This document shows, piece by piece, positions 3,130 through 14,699 of a stretch of 14,699 nt of DNA. The notes below the pieces were generated by a model that was given only the letters and a program-made list of their open reading frames with translations, was not told the DNA's origin and searched no databases. Every line of letters starts with the position of its first letter. Positions within the stretch are counted from its first letter, which is position 1. Source of the stretch: a virus (lineage: Duplodnaviria > Heunggongvirae > Uroviricota > Caudoviricetes). The stretch spans positions 1 to 14,699 of IMG/VR virus record IMGVR_UViG_2850796239_000003, one strand, 5' to 3'. The translations under genes were made by a program, and so were the position numbers.

Positions 3130-3586
3130 GATCGTCCTTTTTGCGCTTCGTAAGTTTGCTATTGCTTCTAATGCATCGCTGACTGATGTTGAGCCGCAAT
3201 CAATTGAAGATGGTGTAAATGATCTGGAAGATATGATGTCCGAGTGGATGATTAACCCCGGCGACATTGGTTACGCTTTCGCAACTGGAGATGAGCAGCC
3301 ATTACCAGATGATGAGTCAGGTCTTCCAAGAAAATACAAACACGCAGTAGGCTATCAGTTATTGCTGAGAATGCTATCTGATTACAGCCTTGAGCCAACT
3401 CCGCAAGTTCTCAGTAACGCCCAACGCTCATATGATGCCTTGATGACCGACACTCTGGTTGTTCCTTCAATGCGACGACGTGGAGATTTTCCTGTAGGAC
3501 AGGGTAATAAATATGACGTGTTCACATCTGACCGATATTATCCAGGCGATCTCCCTCTGATTGATGGCGATATCCCAAATTCATAG
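3104..3586 (+). CDS. Head-to-tail adaptor / packaged-DNA stabilisation protein, P22 gp4-like (160 aa)
   Basis: Translation aligns along its N-terminal half with recalled P22 gp4 (window ...[34 protein letters not shown] versus P22 ...[34 protein letters not shown]). Correct size and position. Confidence 0.88.
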   Translation: [160 protein letters not shown]

Positions 3587-3594
3587 GTGAATAA

Positions 3595-5013
3595 ATGCCT
3601 ATTCAGCAACTTCCGCTTATGAAAGGTGTCGGCAAAGACTTTCGAAACGCCGACTATATCGACTATCTGCCAGTGAATATGCTGGCTACACCCAAAGAAA
3701 TCCTGAACAGCAGCGGATATCTTCGCTCATTCCCTGGCATTGCCAAACGCTCTGATGTGAACGGTGTATCTCGCGGCGTCGAGTACAACATGGCGCAGAA
3801 TGCTGTTTATCGTGTGTGTGGTGGCAAGCTGTACAAAGGAGAAAGTGAAGTCGGTGACGTCGCCGGAAGTGGTCGCGTATCAATGGCGCATGGTCGTACA
3901 TCTCAGGCGATAGGTGTTAATGGTCAACTGGTCGAGTATCGCTATGATGGCACGATTAAAACCGTCTCAAACTGGCCTACAGATAGCGGATTCACTCAGT
4001 ATGAGCTAGGTTCGGTTCGTGACATTACGCGCTTACGTGGGCGTTATGCGTGGTCAAAAGACGGTACTGATTCATGGTTTATCACTGACCTTGAAGACGA
4101 ATCACATCCTGACCGATACAGCGCACAATATCGCGCAGAATCTCAGCCTGATGGCATCATCGGCATAGGGACATGGCGAGACTTCATCGTCTGCTTTGGT
4201 TCATCGACGATTGAATATTTCTCCCTGACTGGTGCAACCACCGTTGGTGCTGCTTTGTATGTCGCCCAGCCATCATTGATGGTGCAAAAAGGCATCGCCG
4301 GGACTTACTGCAAAACGCCGTTTGCTGATTCCTATGCTTTCATCAGCAACCCGGCAACGGGTGCGCCGTCTGTGTACATCATCGGTTCCGGTCAGGTATC
4401 ACCAATCGCCAGCGCGAGCATTGAGAAAATACTTCGCTCCTACACTGCTGATGAACTGGCTGATGGTGTGATGGAGTCTCTGCGATTTGATGCGCATGAG
4501 TTGCTGATTATCCATCTTCCGCGTCACGTCCTTGTGTACGATGCATCTTCAAGCGCCAATGGTCCGCAATGGTGTGTGCTGAAAACAGGCCTGTATGACG
4601 ATGTGTACCGCGCTATCGACTTCATTTACGAAGGCAATCAGATAACGTGCGGCGATAAGCTGGAATCCGTGACCGGGAAACTGCAGTTCGATATCAGCAG
4701 CCAGTACGACAAGCAGCAGGAACACCTGCTGTTTACTCCGTTGTTCAAAGCGGATAACGCCAGATGCTTCGATCTGGAGGTGGAATCATCCACTGGCGTA
4801 GCTCAGTACGCCGACCGCCTGTTCCTCTCTGCAACCACTGACGGCATCAATTACGGACGTGAGCAGATGATTGAGCAGAATGAACCGTTCGTTTACGACA
4901 AACGCGTTTTGTGGAAGCGAGTAGGGCGCATCAGGAAAAATGTCGGCTTCAAATTGCGCATTATCACGAAGTCACCTGTCACTCTGTCTGGCACTCAGAT
5001 AAGGATTGAGTAA
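3595..5013 (+). CDS. Packaged-DNA stabilisation / tail hub protein, P22 gp10-like (472 aa)
   Basis: N-terminus [49 protein letters not shown] matches recalled P22 gp10. Same length as P22 gp10. AGGTG RBS. Stop overlaps the next start (TAATG). Confidence 0.88.
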
Positions 5014-6856: not shown

Positions 6857-6872
6857 GGCTGTGTCCCTTAAT
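6857..6872. repeat. Left terminal inverted repeat of IS copy 2
   Basis: GGCTGTGTCCCTTAAT, a perfect reverse complement of 7757-7772. Confidence 0.85.
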
Positions 6873-6916
6873 CATCTGAGCTATAGTAACTGTCTGTTTA
6901 CACAACATATTGAACT

Positions 6917-7366
6917 ATGGCTCGCTACGACCTTCCCGATGAGGCATGGACCATCATCAAGCCCCTGTTACCTCCTGAACCCGCCACACCACGGGCCGGA
7001 CGCCCATGGGCTGAGCACCGTAAAATCATCAATGGCATGTTCTGGGTGTTATGTTCCGGTGCACCATGGCGCGATTTACCCGAACGATATGGGTCATGGA
7101 AAACTGTTTATAACCGCTTTAACCGATGGTCAAAGTCAGGCGTGATTAATATTATTTTCAACAGGTTGCTTTCGCTACTTGATGCAAACGGCTTTATTGA
7201 CTGGTCTGCCACCGCGCTGGATGGCAGTAATATCCGGGCGCTGAAATGTGCCGCCGGTGCTCAAAAAAACATCCCGATATCGACGGAGATAATGGGCTGG
7301 GTCGCTCTCGCGGCGGTTTTGGCACCAAAATCCATCTGGCAACAGACGGAAGTGGCCTCCCGTTAA
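6917..7366 (+). CDS. IS5-family transposase orfA (149 aa)
   Basis: Identical translation to copy 1 orfA. Confidence 0.85.
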   Translation: MARYDLPDEAWTIIKPLLPPEPATPRAGRPWAEHRKIINGMFWVLCSGAPWRDLPERYGSWKTVYNRFNRWSKSGVINIIFNRLLSLLDANGFIDWSATALDGSNIRALKCAAGAQKNIPISTEIMGWVALAAVLAPKSIWQQTEVASR

Positions 7367-7761
7367 ATATCGTGCTAAGCCCCGGACAAGCTCATGAAAG
7401 CCAGTTCGCGCAACGACTTCTGGACGGGATTGGCGTTCAGCGTCAGAACGGCAGCATGAAACGCCGTGGACATGCGGTACTGGCTGATAAAGCGTATTCA
7501 GGGTGCGCATTGCGCAACGAGCTGAAAAATAACGGTATAAAGGCAGTAATCCCCCGAAAGTCAAATGAGAAAATGGCATCGGATGGACGTGCACAGCTTG
7601 ATCGTGATGCGTACTGCAATCGTAATGTCGTTGAACGGTGCTTTGGGCGGCTGAAAGAATATCGCCGCATCGCCACGCGTTACGACAAAACGGCGAGAAA
7701 TTACCTGGCGATGGTGAAACTGGGCTGCATCCGACTCTTTTATCAACGCTTACGTAATTAA
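7246..7761 (+). CDS. IS5-family transposase orfB (DDE domain, -1 frame)
   Basis: As copy 1 orfB, with two Arg to Cys differences (TGC at 7504-7506 and 7615-7617 where copy 1 has CGC). Confidence 0.85.
   Translation: MCRRCSKKHPDIDGDNGLGRSRGGFGTKIHLATDGSGLPLNIVLSPGQAHESQFAQRLLDGIGVQRQNGSMKRRGHAVLADKAYSGCALRNELKNNGIKAVIPRKSNEKMASDGRAQLDRDAYCNRNVVERCFGRLKEYRRIATRYDKTARNYLAMVKLGCIRLFYQRLRN
7264..7270 (+). other. Candidate -1 programmed frameshift heptamer A AAA AAC joining orfA to orfB
   Basis: In the orfA frame the codons are caA AAA AAc. A -1 slip enters the orfB frame (..SKKHPDID..). The same motif occurs in copy 1 at 1471-1477 as a reverse complement. Confidence 0.5.
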
Positions 7762-7772
7762 GGGACACAGCC
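7757..7772. repeat. Right terminal inverted repeat of IS copy 2
   Basis: ATTAAGGGACACAGCC, a perfect reverse complement of 6857-6872. Confidence 0.85.
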
Positions 7773-9402: not shown

Positions 9403-11246
9403 TGAAAGTAACTGCAAACGGTAAGACATTTACCTTCCCTGATGGTACGAGCATGGAAGATATTGGCACCGCCATTGATGAGTATTTTGCTGGTCAGGCT
9501 GTTCAGCAACAAACAGTTAATCAGGCCAATAATGAACCAGCACGTGAAGAACCATCATTGATGCAACAAGCTGGCGATTGGCTCACAGGCGGGCAAAGTG
9601 CAGGGCAAATTGCAGAGCAGGCTGGTCGTGGTCTGGTAAACATACCATTTGACGTATTGCAGGGCGGCGCAAGTCTGATTAATGCAATCAGTCAGGGGCT
9701 TGGTGGACCCAAGGTTTTGGATGATGTTTATCGTCCAGTAGACAGACCGACAGACACCTACGCGCAAGCCGGTGAAACAATTGGTGGGTATTTAGTTCCA
9801 GGAGTTGGAACGGCAGGAAGCATGGCTATTGGATCACTGGCAGAGGCCGCAAATCAGAAAGGCGATTTCGCACAAAATGCAGCTAAAAATGCCGGAGTTA
9901 ACCTTGCCGCTCAGGGTGTTCTTTCCGCAGCAGCAAAGGGAATAGGGCGTGGAATAACGGCTATAAAAGGTGATATTGCGCCAGAAGTGGCGAAGAAAAT
10001 TGCCACATCAGAATCGATGGGCGTGACACCAATGACATCTGATGTTATCCCGCCGAAAAATGCTTTCACTCGCGGCCTTACTCAGGATGCCGAGGGGGCT
10101 TTGCTCGGGACAGGCTCAAAGCGAGCGGAGCAATATGCAACGCGTAGTAAGCTGGTAAGTAATTATTTTGACCGTTTTGGTGAGTACAACCCTGATGATG
10201 TGGTGAAATCTCTGACCACCACGTTAAGGGGGCGGAAGGATGCCGCTGGCGCTGTTATCAATGACGTCACCAATAAAATGGGTAATGCCGCAGTTGATAC
10301 CACAAATACCATGAATGCTCTGAATACAGCGATCGCAAGACAGGAACGGCTTGGGACGTCTGCCAATCAAAGCCTGCTTACATCCTTGCGTAACCTACGT
10401 GAAGAATTAGCAAACCCTGCAACTGATTTGGATGTTACGTTTGATCTCTTGCGTCAGCACAGAACAGCATTTAGATCTAATGTTCAGGGAGATGCTATGG
10501 TCTTCCCCAACCAGGCAAAAGCAGCTACCAATATGGTAGAGAATGCAATGTCAAAAGACCTTCGTAACGCAGTTGCTAAAAACCTCGGTGCATCAGACGC
10601 AGCAAAATACCTTAAAGCAAATTCCGATTATGCAAACGTTTATAATAAGGTGCTTAATAAAAACATTGCTAACAAGCTCAACAAGGCAAGCAGTGAAGCC
10701 AGTCCTGAACTTATAAATACCGTTGTATTAAGCAGAAAACCATCTGACGTGAAACGAATCTGGAGCGCACTGGATGATAAGGGGAAAGATGCTATGCGTG
10801 CAGCTTACGTCAGCAAAATAGCGGAAAAGGCCGGGGACTCTCCAGCCAAGTTCATCACTGAAGTTAATAAGCTGAAATCTCAGTCAGGCGGTGAAATTTA
10901 CAACACTATTTTTTCTGGAAAGCACATGAAAGAGCTTGATGCTCTTCATGAAGTTCTACAGCAAACAGCAAGGTCAGACACCGCAAATGTAGTAACTCAG
11001 ACGGGGCAATCGCAAGCCAACAGGATAAGGACGATTGGCGCAACTGCGACCCTTGGCGTATCAATGGGGCTTGAGGCTGGTTTTGGTGCAATGATGCGCT
11101 TGTATGAGTCCAAAGCAGCAAGGAATGCTCTCTTACGTCTGGCAAACACTAAAACTGGAACGCCAGCTTATGAAAGAGCGCTAAATAATGCTGCAAATGC
11201 GATACGCCCTATACTTTCAAGCCAAATTACAGCAGAACAGCAATAA
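9399..11246 (+). CDS. Ejection (internal virion) protein, P22 gp16-like (615 aa), by synteny and size
   Basis: Last gene of the plus-strand late block. The length is close to the ~609 aa I recall for P22 gp16. N-terminus [16 protein letters not shown]. Confidence 0.7.
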
Positions 11247-11260
11247 AAGATAAGATATAA

Positions 11261-11554
11261 CTACCTGATATTACTGCTACTGTTGCATGTTACCGTGTTT
11301 CCAAATCCTGAATTGCAGTTTGTATATGTGTCAACGCGTGTTGGGTAAGGTTGAGTTATAACAGGCTGGCGCGCTTTTTGCTCGATCGCTTGCATTGTGT
11401 TTACAGCCTGGTAATTCAATAAAGCCTGCTGGAATGCTTGGCTTTGTGCTATTTGTTGGGCTTGTTCTTGGCTTTGTAATTGAACATAAAGATTCTGAAG
11501 CTCAAGTCTTGCCTTCATCGACACCTTGCCCGAGCATCTTTGCAGCAAGGACAT
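11261..11554 (-). CDS. Hypothetical Q-rich protein (97 aa; possibly the frameshifted 3' part of the lipoprotein gene)
   Basis: ORF in a different frame, overlapping the lipoprotein ORF by 53 nt. No good RBS at the first ATG; an internal ATG at 11518 has AAGGTG only 3 nt upstream. Gln-rich helical segment and Cys/Asn-rich C-terminus. Confidence 0.3.
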   Translation of the reverse strand: MSLLQRCSGKVSMKARLELQNLYVQLQSQEQAQQIAQSQAFQQALLNYQAVNTMQAIEQKARQPVITQPYPTRVDTYTNCNSGFGNTVTCNSSSNIR

Positions 11555-11726
11555 ACAGCTTAGGTGTTGGTGCTGATGCCATGCGTGAGTCGTTCTTCAC
11601 ACTGGCATCAAGGCAATTAGCCATATCGCTAAGCTTTTGATAGCGTTGTTCGCAACTTGCTTGATAGTCACTTACTTTTGCGCATCCAACCAGCAGAAGC
11701 GGGATAATTAACAGTGATTTTTTCAT
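11502..11726 (-). CDS. Small lipoprotein (74 aa) at the sieA-equivalent position
   Basis: Signal peptide with lipobox MKKSLLIIPLLLVGC and Cys at +1. AGGAG upstream of the ATG at 11726. Lies between gp16-like and mnt, where P22 carries sieA. Confidence 0.55.
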   Translation of the reverse strand: MKKSLLIIPLLLVGCAKVSDYQASCEQRYQKLSDMANCLDASVKNDSRMASAPTPKLYVLAAKMLGQGVDEGKT

Positions 11727-11796
11727 ATGGTTAACTCTCCTTAGTTTTTCACAGGATATCATGAAGGCAATGCCATTTTAGCCGGAAACTAGATTT

Positions 11797-12063
11797 CTAT
11801 GTTTCCTTTTTATTATTGCTATACATGGTCTTAAGCGTTTCAAAAACCATTTTCTTAACCATATCAGATTGTTGTTCTGCCATACGCTCTGCATCGTCAA
11901 TGTAAACTGATGCAGAGCTTTGTTTATCCAATGATTCCTCAATCGCTGCAATTATCTCTGAGTTCAGCGATCTGTTATTCATCTTCGCACGCTGTTTAAT
12001 TTTCGCGTGGAGTTCATGCGGAAGTATCAAGTGAAACTGCGCCTCGTCGTATTTGCTGTACAT
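11797..12063 (-). CDS. mnt: Mnt-like ribbon-helix-helix repressor (immI region), 88 aa
   Basis: Translation aligns with recalled P22 Mnt (window NNRSLNSEII...DDAERMAEQQSDMVKKMVFETLKTMY versus P22 NGRSMNSELL...NDAERLADEQSELVKKMVFDTLKDLY). Start at ATG 12063 is preferred; the alternative ATG at 12096 would give 99 aa. Confidence 0.8.
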   Translation of the reverse strand: MYSKYDEAQFHLILPHELHAKIKQRAKMNNRSLNSEIIAAIEESLDKQSSASVYIDDAERMAEQQSDMVKKMVFETLKTMYSNNKKET

Positions 12064-12134
12064 CCTTGATGCCTCACCAGTTGGGTGGAATGGCATCGTA
12101 ACCTACTGGATAAATACTCAATAGTACCATTTCG

Positions 12135-12139
12135 GTATG
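12135..12139. repeat. IS2 target-site duplication (GTATG), left copy
   Basis: The same 5-mer occurs at 13471-13475, directly abutting both IS2 termini. Confidence 0.85.
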
Positions 12140-12150
12140 TGGATTTGCCC

Positions 12151-13056
12151 CTATATTTCCAGACATCTGTTATCACTTAACCCATTACAAGCCCGCTGCC
12201 GCAGATATTCCCGTGGCGAGCGATAACCCAGCGCACTATGCGGATGCCATTCGTTATAATGCTCGAACGCCTCTGCAAGGTTCTTTGCTGCCGTTAACCC
12301 GTCTGGTTTGGGCATGATACTGATGTAGTCACGCTTTATCGTTTTCACGAAGCTCTCTGCTATTCCGTTACTCTCCGGACTCCGCACCGCCGTGTTCTTC
12401 GGTTCAAGTCCCAACATCCGGGCGAACTGGCGTGTTTCATTAGCCCGGTAGCATGAACCATTATCCGTCAGCCACTCCACTGGAGACGACGGAAGATCGT
12501 TGCCGAAGCGGCGTTCCACCGCTCCCAGCATGACGTCCTGTACTGTTTCACTGTTGAAGCCGCCGGTAGTCACCGCCCAGTGCAGTGCCTCACGATCACA
12601 GCAGTCCAGCGCGAACGTGACACGCAGTCTCTCTCCGTTATCACAGCAGAACTCGAACCCGTCAGAGCACCATCGCTGATTGCTTTCTTTCACGGCCACT
12701 CTGCCTGTATGTGCCCGTTTCGATGGCGGTACAGCAGGTTTTCGCTCAAGCAACAGCGCATTCTGGCGCATGATCCGGTAAACACGTTTGGCATTGATCG
12801 CAGGCATACCATCAAGTTCTGCCTGTCTGCGAAGCAGCGCCCATACCCGACGATAACCATACGTGGGCAGCTCTCCGATAACATGGTGTATACGGAGAAG
12901 CACATCCGTATCATCAGTGTGACGACTGCGGCGGCCATCCATCCAGTCATCGGTTCGTCTGAGAATGACGTGCAACTGCGCACGCGACACCCGGAGACAA
13001 CGGCTGACTAAGCTTACTCCCCATCCCCGGGCAATAAGGGCGCGTGCGCTATCCAC
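12151..13056 (-). CDS. insD: IS2 transposase OrfB (InsD), 301 aa
   Basis: Translation [28 protein letters not shown]... with an IS3-family DDE integrase core. Overlaps insC in the -1 frame. Confidence 0.9.
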
Positions 13057-13379
13057 TTTTTTGCCCGTCCATATTCAACGGCTTCTTTGAGGAGTTCATT
13101 TTCCATCGTTTTCTTGCCGAGCAGGCGCTGGAGTTCTTTAATCTGCTTCATGGCGGCAGCAAGTTCAGAGGCAGGAACAACCTGTTCTCCGGCGGCCACA
13201 GCAGTAAGACTTCCTTCCTGGTATTGCTTACGCCAGAGAAATAACTGGCTGGCTGCTACACCATGTTGCCGGGCAACGAGGGAGACCGTCATCCCCGGTT
13301 CAAAGCTCTGCTGAACAATTGCGATCTTTTCCTGTGTGGTACGCCGTCTGCGTTTCTCCGGCCCTAAGACATCAATCAT
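13014..13379 (-). CDS. insC: IS2 transposase OrfA (InsC), 121 aa
   Basis: [41 protein letters not shown]..., a helix-turn-helix protein. Start taken at the internal ATG at 13379 rather than the 136-aa ORF-track start. Confidence 0.9.
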
Positions 13380-13470
13380 CTGTACTCCAATGACTAGTCT
13401 AAAAACTAGTATTAAGACTATCACTTATTTAAGTGATACTGGTTGTCTGGAGATTCAGGGGGCCAGTCTA

Positions 13471-13475
13471 GTATG
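13471..13475. repeat. IS2 target-site duplication (GTATG), right copy
   Basis: Identical to 12135-12139. Confidence 0.85.
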
Positions 13476-13520
13476 CAATCACATCATGGTTGCATCATAT
13501 CATTCGTCTGGAGCAATGAA

Positions 13521-14676
13521 ATGTCAGATATCACCGCAAATGTTGTGGTAAGCATGCCTTCGCAACTCTTCACTATGGCTCGTTCTTTTAAAGCGGTTGC
13601 CAATGGCAAAATTTATATCGGTAAAATTGACACGGATCCGGTAAATCCTGAAAACCAGATTCAGGTTTATTTAGAGAACGAAGACGGCTCTTACGTTCCT
13701 GTTTCACAACCAATCATCATTAACGCTGCTGGTTACCCTGTATATAACGGACAGATTGCCAAATTCGTTACCGTGCAAGGCCATTCTATGGCTGTTTATG
13801 ATGCGTACGGTGCGCAGCAGTTTTATTTTCCGAATGTGCTGAAGTACGACCCGGATCAGCTTGAGAAAAGATTGTCGTTAAACACGGGAGCTTCCCTGAT
13901 TGGTACATATTCAGGAGCATCGATTCAGTCGGAGATTGACTGTATTAATGAAAGCATTGAAATTATCAATAATGACGAACTTCCAAATCTATCGCTAGGG
14001 GTGGCATCATCTATAAAAACATCGGTCCAAATAATTGATGAAATTAAAGATCCATCTATTTCTTATGATGCATTTGGTAACTCCGTGTTCTACAATGGCC
14101 GCAATTTATTTTGCTTCAGGAGATCACCTGAGCATGTTGATACTTATACAGGCATGCACAGTGTGTGCATAGCAGAAATACTCAACAATGGAGCTTGTAA
14201 AATAATATGGGAATATACTGATAATACTGGCAATGCACCTAAAGATCCTACATTATCAGTCAGTAACCCAGGTAATACACTAATTATTTCTTTTCAGATT
14301 CATAATGTTTCATCTGATACATATACTTCTGGTATTATTGGATATCCTGATTTGTCAAATACTGGTAAGTTTTTATCAAGTTCTGAACTTACCACGGATC
14401 ATAACGTTTTTTTATGGGGTAATGTACTGCAAACTCCATCTGGAAATTTTATAACATCCAGATATAAAATTGATGGCACTGGTGTAGAGATAATTTCTTC
14501 ATCTGATACAAATTTAAACGAAAATACAACATGGTCTATAGTTAGTACACTTTCTGTTGGTTCGTTCCAGACAAGAACATCAGTTAATGAATGCAGTCTT
14601 TCATATTATAGAAATCAACTAGTTGCAATAGTCAGAACTCAGTCAGGCTCTTCTTTGGGTGGTTTTGGATATGCTA
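13521..14676 (+). pseudogene. Tailspike: P22 gp9-type head-binding N-terminal domain fused to a divergent AT-rich receptor-binding domain, 3'-truncated by IS copy 3
   Basis: ATG at 13521 with GGAG 7 nt upstream. The first ~110 residues ([50 protein letters not shown]...[12 protein letters not shown]...NVLKYDPDQ) match the recalled P22 tailspike head-binding domain; the rest is unrelated and visibly AT-rich. The frame runs into the IS at 14677, leaving about 385 codons. Confidence 0.85.
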
Positions 14677-14699
14677 GGCTGTGTCCCTTAATCATCTGA
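14677..14699 (+). mobile_element. IS5-family IS (same element), copy 3, left end only (cut by the window edge)
   Basis: GGCTGTGTCCCTTAATCATCTGA is identical to the first 23 nt of copy 2 and is preceded by TA at 14675-14676. Confidence 0.8.

Follow-up and report, generated by a model that had tools for sequence, protein, structure and literature searches.

Organisation of the mnt-tailspike region

The window, the stretch of 14,699 nucleotides analysed here, belongs to a defective P22-like prophage (Lederbergvirus, Sf101/IME10-type) in a chromosome labelled Shigella boydii / E. coli. The gene order is gp20, gp16, lipoprotein remnant, mnt and tailspike, and a copy of IS2 separates the last two. 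The region contains the following features.

11261-11729, minus strand: remnant of a lipoprotein gene (phrog_6067 by PHROGs match), a 161-aa gene that adjoins mnt in intact relatives and is present here as split ORFs
11797-12063, minus strand: mnt, encoding a ribbon-helix-helix repressor of 88 aa that carries the C-terminal tetramerisation domain of Mnt
12072-12075, minus strand: GAGG, the Shine-Dalgarno sequence of mnt, 8 nt before the start codon at 12063
12135-12139: left copy of the target-site duplication, GTATG, present as a single copy in uninterrupted sites
12140-13470, minus strand: IS2, complete, 1331 bp
13471-13475: right copy of the target-site duplication, GTATG, an exact match to the left copy
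13521-14676, plus strand: tailspike gene, comprising the head-binding domain and the start of the receptor-binding part; the gene continues beyond the window

The first-pass annotation of this DNA had recognised an Mnt-like repressor from its sequence, and database comparison confirms the assignment. Pfam places an Arc domain (PF03869, 1e-12) over the N-terminal ribbon-helix-helix and a Repressor_Mnt domain (PF11423, 4e-12) over the C-terminal tetramerisation helix. Aligned with P22 Mnt over 76 residues, the protein shows 46% identity (tblastn, E 1e-22), and it aligns to the solved structure 1mnt over residues 3-75, with further matches to 1qey and to Arc structures. The start region GAGGCATCA(A/G)(G/A)(G/A)-ATG is conserved across the classes represented by the window, Sf101, VSe13, ST64T, ST160 and Gally. 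A longer frame of 99 aa, starting from an ATG at 12096, was rejected in view of the class-wide GAGG 8 nt before 12063 and the length of 88 aa given in RefSeq.

The tailspike gene starts with the ATG at 13521 and encodes a Head_binding domain (Pfam, 5e-67). Its full-length relatives are 664 aa, and the copy in the window is broken at 14677 by an IS5-family element (IS inverted repeat; downstream sequence seen in L007).

Neither arc nor ant is present, as the first-pass annotation had noted. A tblastn search of the whole window with P22 Arc, Ant and SieA, Kapi1 Arc and Ant, VSe13 Ant and CUS-3 Ant returned nothing better than E = 0.16; the two Arc queries (P22 and Kapi1) gave E of at least 0.39 and the four Ant proteins E of at least 0.62. 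The 121-bp spacer between mnt and the tailspike gene is too short for a 53-codon gene, so there is no room in it for arc, and Rfam gives no match of any kind, sar RNA included, at E <= 1 within 11200-14699. While mnt is thus the sole immunity-I (immI) gene, the description of the region as reduced does not hold, since this is a standard layout and not a local loss. The same mnt-only arrangement is found in the isolated phages Sf101, IME10, Gally, VSe13, ST160, ST64T/L and Brookers, and 95 or more complete E. coli genomes contain it as one contiguous match. It has already been described as the "ant moron" variant (Villafane 2008, PMC2629481) and appears in the phage L genome paper (bioRxiv 10.1101/2020.10.05.325894). 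Phages of this type naturally carry mnt and a small lipoprotein gene where P22 has sieA, mnt, arc and ant.

Like immI of P22, the locus lies between gene 16 and the tailspike gene and includes a leftward mnt whose product has both Mnt domains; a -35 hexamer (TTGAG-) abuts a 4-N5-4 dyad in the register of Omnt. Unlike P22, the window lacks homologues of arc, ant, sar and sieA and any recognisable Pant overlapping Omnt. Its dyad boxes are TACC/GGTA rather than the GTCC/GGAC of P22, the beta-strand of its Mnt reads QFHLIL rather than HFNFRM, and mnt is 121 bp from the tailspike gene as against about 1.4 kb. Phages L, ST64T, ST104 and ST160, which have the "ant moron" layout, likewise carry mnt as the only immI gene between gene 16 and the tailspike gene, with a single cognate palindrome, the only one in the genome, directly upstream of mnt. 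They differ in having an Mnt of another specificity class (about 49-55% identical, GACC boxes), an accessory gene of the orf62 type in place of the lipoprotein gene, and, ahead of the tailspike gene, sequence of the P22 rather than the Sf101 type.

Insertion of IS2

The element between mnt and the tailspike gene is IS2, of the IS3 family, by its length, inverted repeats, target duplication, orfA/orfB overlap and near-identity to known copies. Its right inverted repeat lies at the 12140 end, adjoining mnt, and its left inverted repeat at the 13470 end; the termini TAGACTGGCCCCCTGAATCTCCAGACA... and TGGATTTGCCCCTATATTTCCAGACA... pair over ~41 bp as imperfect terminal inverted repeats. orfA (13379-13014) encodes an HTH_Tnp_1 domain and orfB, which ends at 12151, an rve domain (both Pfam). 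The two reading frames overlap with a -1 shift, and the overlap holds an A6G slippery site at 13062 (AAAAAAG, IS position 409). The transposase gene is oriented toward mnt. Over its full length the element matches E. coli copies annotated "IS3-like element IS2 family transposase" at 99.4-99.9% identity.

IS2 entered the mnt-tailspike spacer by simple transposition, duplicating GTATG. This follows from the exact 1331-bp element, the exact 5-bp duplication and the agreement of the emptied spacer with uninterrupted relatives. The comparison with empty sites, which the first-pass annotation had proposed, shows that removal of IS2 and one GTATG leaves a spacer identical at 121 of 121 bp to those of three uninterrupted E. 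coli prophages (L001, L002 and L021) and phage Sf101, all with a single GTATG; a further spacer, that of L022, differs by one base. The simple insertion and the distances given earlier, 76 bp from IS2 to the mnt start on the left and 50 bp to the tailspike ATG on the right, are correct. The spacer length of about 126 bp is not, the duplicated GTATG having been counted twice. Sf101, IME10 and near-identical E. coli prophages (e.g. CP159700) share not only this spacer but also an Mnt that is 90-99% identical and the order gp16, (lipoprotein), mnt, tailspike head-binding domain. They differ from the window in having no IS2, intact genes, an Mnt with Arg13 and other tailspike receptor-binding domains.

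IS2 insertions are classic polar or promoter-creating mutations, as in the gal operon and ampC. The present case resembles these in the element, the 5-bp duplication and the position directly upstream of a gene. It differs in that the downstream genes belong to a defective prophage and in that a consensus promoter scan detects no hybrid promoter, formed from an IS2 end and its flank, at either junction. A -35-like TGGAAA in the right inverted repeat was considered as part of such a promoter and rejected, as inspection by eye found no usable -10 in the flank.

Predicted operator and promoter of mnt

The spacer and the mnt leader contain the following predicted or candidate elements.

12125-12137: predicted Mnt operator, TACC-ATTTC-GGTA (plus strand), within ATACCGAAATGGTAC on the mnt strand
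12095-12121, minus strand: predicted Pmnt, placed by positional homology only, with -35 TTGAGT (12121-12116) and -10 TACGAT (12100-12095) separated by 15 bp
12075-12087: a second dyad within the predicted mnt leader, CACC-AGTTG-GGTG, which may be another operator or a small hairpin
13473-13495: dyad or hairpin ATGCAATCA-N5-TGGTTGCAT, from a repeat search of the uninterrupted locus, which stays on the tailspike side of IS2
13499-13527, minus strand: promoter-like match CTGACA-17-AATGAT (9/12); no other candidate mnt promoter would be cut off by IS2

A search of the spacer for dyad operator sites, also suggested by the first-pass annotation, yields the 4-N5-4 dyad TACC-N5-GGTA at 12125-12137 in the register of P22 Omnt. 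The annotated Omnt of P22 reads CTCAATAG-GTCC-ACGGT-GGAC and the window reads CTCAATAG-TACC-ATTTC-GGTA, the register being shared relative both to CTCAATAG and to the Pmnt -35. The same scan, applied to P22, recovers both Omnt and Oarc. Across four Mnt classes it detects a single co-varying dyad, at -68 to -77, the beta-strand of the repressor and the operator box changing together: HFNFRMP occurs with GTCC, QFNLRLP with GACC, QFHL(R/I)L(P/T) with TACC and QINIRIS with TATA. Within the class of the window the boxes are kept while the spacer bases vary. The motif occurs once in the window and once in the whole Sf101 genome, and the ST64T genome also has a single site. Chance alone is expected to produce ~0.4 perfect 4-N5-4 dyads per ~120 bp, so the case for the operator rests on position and on co-variation, the latter covering about ten sequences of which several are closely related.

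In the predicted operator of the window class, symmetry is confined to the two 4-bp boxes, in contrast to the perfect 17-bp palindromes of the P22, ST64T and Klebsiella-phage sites. The second dyad, at -24, is shared by the window, VSe13 and L003, with its arms kept and its spacer different in L003.

The predicted Pmnt lies in the same register as the annotated Pmnt of P22 (TTGAGA-17-TATCAT), and it fails the consensus promoter scan. Its spacer is 15 bp, compared with 17 bp in VSe13, L003, P22 and ST64T. Judged from these alignments, the operator and Pmnt probably both lie on the mnt side of the insertion, with IS2 starting 2 bp beyond the operator and leaving the mnt control unit intact.

The first-pass annotation had instead proposed that IS2 disrupts a divergent promoter and operator region, and this is not supported by the placement of both predicted elements on the mnt side and the failure to detect a rightward promoter. 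In its fullest form the proposal is that mnt and the tailspike gene share a promoter and operator region in the spacer, and that IS2 severs mnt, the tailspike gene or both from it, leaving them misregulated or driven only from IS2. We regard this as unlikely. It is true that the insertion splits the only non-coding DNA between the two genes and that the homology-placed Pmnt has a poor spacer length. Moreover, the sole spacer site to pass the consensus scan (13527-13499) points leftward from the tailspike side and, if it were the real mnt promoter, would now be 1.3 kb away. That site, however, scores only 9/12 and was judged a chance match, two such sites being found against 1.5-2.2 expected from shuffled sequence. 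Tailspike codons 1-2, read on the complementary strand, supply its -35, and its -10-like hexamer is missing in VSe13 and L003, which share the same Mnt and operator class. A rightward, Pant-like promoter is absent from the spacer in a scan that recovers P22 Pant (11/12) and Pmnt (10/12), and the homologue of the P22 operator and Pmnt -35 falls entirely on the mnt side.

The hairpin at 13473-13495 was rejected as a regulatory RNA structure, as it folds no better than shuffled sequence (z-score -0.7). A CAGTAG remnant is located where P22 has the left half of Oarc.

Substitution of a conserved arginine in Mnt

Structure alignment places residue 13 of the window Mnt, an isoleucine, at the position of P22 Mnt Arg10 and Arc Arg13, so that the conserved beta-strand arginine is absent from this protein. 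The corresponding residue is arginine in nearly all of 120 homologue cluster representatives, with one isoleucine and one glycine. From the Arc-operator crystal structure and the Mnt mutagenesis of Sauer and colleagues, Arc Arg13 and Mnt Arg10 are reportedly base-contacting and required for binding. Mnt with Ile13 may therefore no longer bind the predicted operator, even though that operator is intact.

This raises the alternative that mnt was dead or weakened before, or independently of, the insertion, the exchange of arginine for isoleucine having abolished operator binding, so that the position of IS2 has no regulatory meaning. Besides the rarity of isoleucine at this position, it would fit the disruption of the neighbouring gene and of three virion genes. 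The Ile13 allele nevertheless persists in three protein variants, which differ at residue 46, and two other E. coli prophages carry it together with the same operator and a tailspike gene of full length. It may thus be tolerated, which weakens the case for Ile13 as a unique inactivating mutation. The reading frame is otherwise intact, and comparison with mnt of L001 gives two non-synonymous against seven synonymous differences (dN/dS 0.06). A prior loss of Mnt function is plausible but, on balance, doubtful.

Defects of the prophage and distribution of the insertion

The prophage is dead and can form no virions. Copies of an IS type other than IS2 break up its coat, gp7 and tailspike genes: 916-bp copies occupy 969-1884 in the coat gene and 6857-7772 in gp7, and another starts at 14677 in the tailspike gene. 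In the lipoprotein gene a deletion of 20 bp between TCTTGCCT repeats, located after 11506, shifts the reading frame, as seen from alignment to E. coli L001.

Five assemblies carry exactly the same Mnt protein, and all five show either the IS2 junction or a contig break at this place. The junction is found in none of 5,426 complete E. coli genomes, and an exact search with the left junction gave no match in a representative-genome collection (one genome per species, this lineage left out). In the small S. boydii lineage that carries it, the insertion is fixed. An earlier description of it as probably recent accordingly stands only in a relative sense, given the junction or contig break in all five assemblies with this Mnt.

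It is conceivable that the insertion was selected for, either by silencing a costly tailspike (an O-antigen-degrading enzyme) or by raising Mnt expression. Its presence in all five assemblies of the lineage, if the contig breaks are counted with the junctions, would suit this idea. So would a separate IS2, with the duplication AATAG, between a related mnt and tailspike gene in E. coli FACU 2024 (L003), and the IS elements in or beside P22-like tailspike genes of several E. coli genomes. Silencing, however, adds nothing where the tailspike gene is already knocked out by another IS, and neither junction shows a hybrid promoter. IS2 is also abundant, with 3,317 of the 5,426 E. coli genomes matching its end, and a clonal, IS-rich lineage can fix a copy without selection. 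We consider selection for the insertion highly improbable.

Interpretation

We favour, with a probability of about 0.7, the reading that IS2 made a simple hit in a normal mnt-only spacer of a dead prophage, leaving the mnt unit intact and cutting off the tailspike gene. The mnt control unit would consist of the operator (12125-12137), the leftward promoter (12095-12121) whose -35 it abuts and, after these, the GAGG ribosome-binding site. Because IS2 begins 2 bp beyond the predicted operator, mnt could still be transcribed from its own promoter, and it may also be reached by read-through from the IS2 transposase gene. Late-operon transcription normally reaches the tailspike gene, which appears to have no recognisable promoter of its own, and the 1.3 kb of IS2 would now lie between the two. 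IS2 would then be a further neutral hit in a prophage that is decaying within an IS-rich genome.

The insertion is real but ordinary, and the layout has been known since phage L and ST64T were described. As a single case it matters little, being a further IS insertion in a multiply inactivated prophage of a genome type known for IS expansion. Its by-product is a testable predicted operator and promoter for the Sf101-type Mnt. The table of Mnt beta-strands and operator boxes could help to annotate the variable region of P22-like prophages and could address whether orphan mnt genes still function.

In mnt-only phages the operator is always found in one place, past the end of the late operon and before the tailspike gene. 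We tentatively suggest, as an idea with only a modest chance of being correct, that the orphan Mnt of such P22-like phages, instead of being a relic in decay, is part of a maintained repressor-operator pair, serving for example as a lysogeny-specific gate or roadblock to transcription that enters the tailspike gene, or in another role. The suggestion comes from the co-variation of at least four classes, the single operator per genome and the constant operator position. If it is true, IS2 has uncoupled the Mnt gate from the tailspike gene in the Shigella lineage.

Gene layout around mnt

In a dead prophage, a known gene layout has received an ordinary IS2 insertion. The observation made in the first-pass annotation is confirmed, and its interpretation is partly supported. 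On sequence evidence, only the predicted operator and promoter for Mnt proteins of the window's class, with their co-variation pattern, are mildly new.

The window encodes an Mnt-like repressor, as previously annotated:

11797-12063, minus strand: mnt, 88 aa, Pfam Arc and Repressor_Mnt

The protein matches the solved Mnt structures 1mnt and 1qey and shares 46% identity with P22 Mnt over 76 aligned residues (tblastn, E 1e-22). The reported absence of arc and ant also stands: Arc, Ant and SieA proteins from P22, Kapi1, VSe13 and CUS-3, used as tblastn queries, gave no match anywhere in the window, and Rfam detected no sar RNA. The layout described as "reduced to mnt alone" is not peculiar to the window. 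The order gene 16 homologue, small gene, mnt and then directly the tailspike gene is found in the Lederbergvirus isolates Sf101, Gally, VSe13, ST160, ST64T and Brookers, and the unannotated record of IME10 gives a contiguous match over mnt, the spacer and the tailspike start. The mnt-only stretch is likewise one contiguous match (96-97% identity) in 95 complete E. coli genomes. Villafane et al. 2008 (PMC2629481) refer to the variable slot as the "ant moron" and describe only mnt and one unknown gene in it in ST64T, ST104 and Para1. Being widespread and published, the layout is not a reduction that arose in the window's genome. In E. coli EC1515 and EC974, ~600 extra bases carrying an annotated HNH endonuclease gene split the same lipoprotein-mnt-tailspike stretch.

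Insertion of IS2

The spacer between the mnt start and the tailspike ATG is interrupted by a complete element:

12140-13470, minus strand (transposase genes): IS2, exactly 1331 bp
13379-13014, minus strand: IS2 orfA
ending at 12151, minus strand: IS2 orfB
12135-12139 and 13471-13475: GTATG target-site duplication, directly outside both IS2 ends

The element has imperfect inverted repeats of ~41 bp at its ends and an AAAAAAG slippery site at 13062 within the orfA/orfB overlap, and shares 99.4-99.9% identity with annotated E. coli IS2 copies. The intact GTATG duplication and the distances of 76 bp to mnt and 50 bp to the tailspike ATG are as first described. The emptied spacer is 121 bp, not the ~126 bp originally estimated, because one GTATG copy must be removed together with IS2. 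All 121 bp are identical in prophages of E. coli Z142-1 and GPEC87-32-644, in phage Sf101 and in a further E. coli prophage (L021); another (L022) differs by one base. This identity to uninterrupted relatives establishes that IS2 arrived by simple transposition, as had been proposed.

Predicted operator and promoter of mnt

Twelve phages and prophages were scanned, over the 90-125 bp preceding mnt, for perfect dyads of a 4-bp box, a 5-bp spacer and a 4-bp box. The scan recovers the two known operators of P22 and epsilon34 (Omnt at -72, Oarc at -44), and most of the others have a dyad at -68 to -77. Kapi1 and phiv205-1 have nothing at -68 to -77, and Brookers is an exception in which the left half is imperfect. 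The dyad in the window is TACC-ATTTC-GGTA. On the tailspike-sense strand P22 reads CTCAATAG-GTCC-ACGGT-GGAC and the window CTCAATAG-TACC-ATTTC-GGTA (12117-12137), in exactly the same register. Annotated P22 Pmnt is TTGAGA-17-TATCAT, with Omnt directly next to its -35. Comparison with P22 and box co-variation point to the following:

12125-12137: predicted Mnt operator, in the register of P22 Omnt
12121-12095, minus strand: predicted Pmnt
12075-12072: predicted GAGG ribosome-binding site of mnt

Across four classes, the operator boxes co-vary with the Mnt beta-strand.

Mnt beta-strand and operator boxes by class
HFNFRMP: GTCC/GGAC (P22, epsilon34)
QFNLRLP: GACC/GGTC (ST64T, ST160, Gally)
QFHL(R/I)L(P/T): TACC/GGTA (window, Sf101, VSe13 and L003, an E. 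coli FACU 2024 prophage)
QINIRIS: TATA/TATA (a Klebsiella phage)

Within the window's class the boxes are invariant and the spacer bases vary (GAAAT, TAAAT, GAAAC); symmetry of the predicted window operator is confined to the boxes. The window and the whole Sf101 genome each contain a single copy of the motif, and ST64T one copy of its own version. The predicted window-class Pmnt has a 15-bp spacer and fails a consensus scan, as do the weaker equivalents in ST64T and VSe13.

Together with a dN/dS of 0.06 for mnt against the prophage L001 (7 synonymous and 2 non-synonymous differences), the co-variation suggests maintenance, not decay, of orphan mnt genes. Codon 13 of the window's mnt (12025-12027) is ATA (Ile) instead of AGA (Arg), aligning with DNA-contacting Arg10 of Mnt and Arg13 of Arc; Arg occupies this position in nearly all of 120 homologue cluster representatives, and the Ile allele is rare. 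Operator binding could possibly be lost through this substitution, a reading held at that strength because Ile13 is also present in L021 and L022, in which the tailspike genes are full-length and the operator is unchanged.

The predicted mnt leader contains a second dyad, CACC-AGTTG-GGTG (12075-12087), which overlaps the ribosome-binding site. Its arms are kept in VSe13 and L003, the latter with a different spacer (CATTA, mnt strand). The dyad may serve as an additional operator or form a small hairpin.

Effect of IS2 on transcription

IS2 was initially thought to disrupt a divergent promoter and operator region. Against this, a consensus scan that recovers both P22 promoters detected no rightward promoter either at the IS2 junction or within the spacer, and IS2, starting 2 bp past the predicted operator, probably leaves this operator, Pmnt and the GAGG site all on its mnt side. 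The only candidate promoter that IS2 would sever from mnt is CTGACA-17-AATGAT (13527-13499) on the tailspike side. That this was the mnt promoter is unlikely: it scores 9/12, at chance frequency, its CTGACA -35 is complementary to tailspike codons 1-2, and the AATGAT hexamer is missing in VSe13 and L003 despite their same Mnt class. In P22-like phages, late-operon transcription from the left reaches the tailspike gene (PMC2629481). IS2 now inserts 1.3 kb of foreign sequence into this route. Its transposase genes are directed toward mnt, with no predicted terminator-like site on their strand, so read-through into mnt is possible.

Spread of the insertion

The window is part of the 5.16-Mb chromosome CP026875.1 (GCA_002950355.1). 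Its exact Mnt protein, labelled Shigella boydii or E. coli by database sources, is present on five assemblies. Two have the window's IS2-mnt junction, one has a contig stopping 54 bp inside IS2, and the remaining two have contigs broken at the duplicated bases; two of the five share a 100% identical IS2 copy. A junction or break at this point in all five indicates that the insertion is fixed in a small lineage, and the junction occurs in 0 of 5,426 complete E. coli genomes. An RHS-family gene, not the tailspike gene, borders the opposite end of the same IS2 copy in the S. boydii draft AERN01000049.1 (156-2053); either the assembly was joined across the repeat, or IS2 mediated a rearrangement. 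L003 (NZ_CP147009.1, ~3386-4716) carries an independent IS2, with duplication AATAG, between a related mnt and the tailspike gene of a different prophage. Further E. coli genomes have IS elements within or beside P22-like tailspike genes.

Decay of the prophage

A 916-bp IS5-family element (DUF4096 and DDE_Tnp_1; terminal repeat GGCTGTGTCCCTTAAT) is present in three copies, and the lipoprotein gene adjoining mnt (phrog_6067; 161 aa in intact relatives) is frameshifted:

969-1884: copy 1, inside the coat gene
6857-7772: copy 2, inside the gp7 ejection-protein gene
from 14677 (14677-14699 in the window; on to ~12072 in the source contig): copy 3, inside the tailspike gene
11506/11507: 20-bp deletion in the lipoprotein gene, between direct TCTTGCCT repeats

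Beginning at 13521, the tailspike gene opens with the full head-binding domain (full-length relatives have 664 aa). Its apparent stop codon falls inside copy 3, of which only the first 23 bp are within the window, and the gene picks up again beyond that copy in the source contig.

Sequences upstream of P22-type and Sf101-type tailspike genes are unrelated. Each type has a short hairpin ~25-27 nt before the tailspike ATG (P22 5155-5180; window 13473-13495), and in P22 two copies of the motif AAAATTCACCGTAGCCA precede gene 9. Beyond the downstream end of the window, the prophage extends in the source contig (12503-16687) through an acyltransferase gene (Acyl_transf_3) resembling the Sf101 O-antigen acetylase and an integrase, followed by host genes with the Pfam domains Form_Nir_trans and MlaA.
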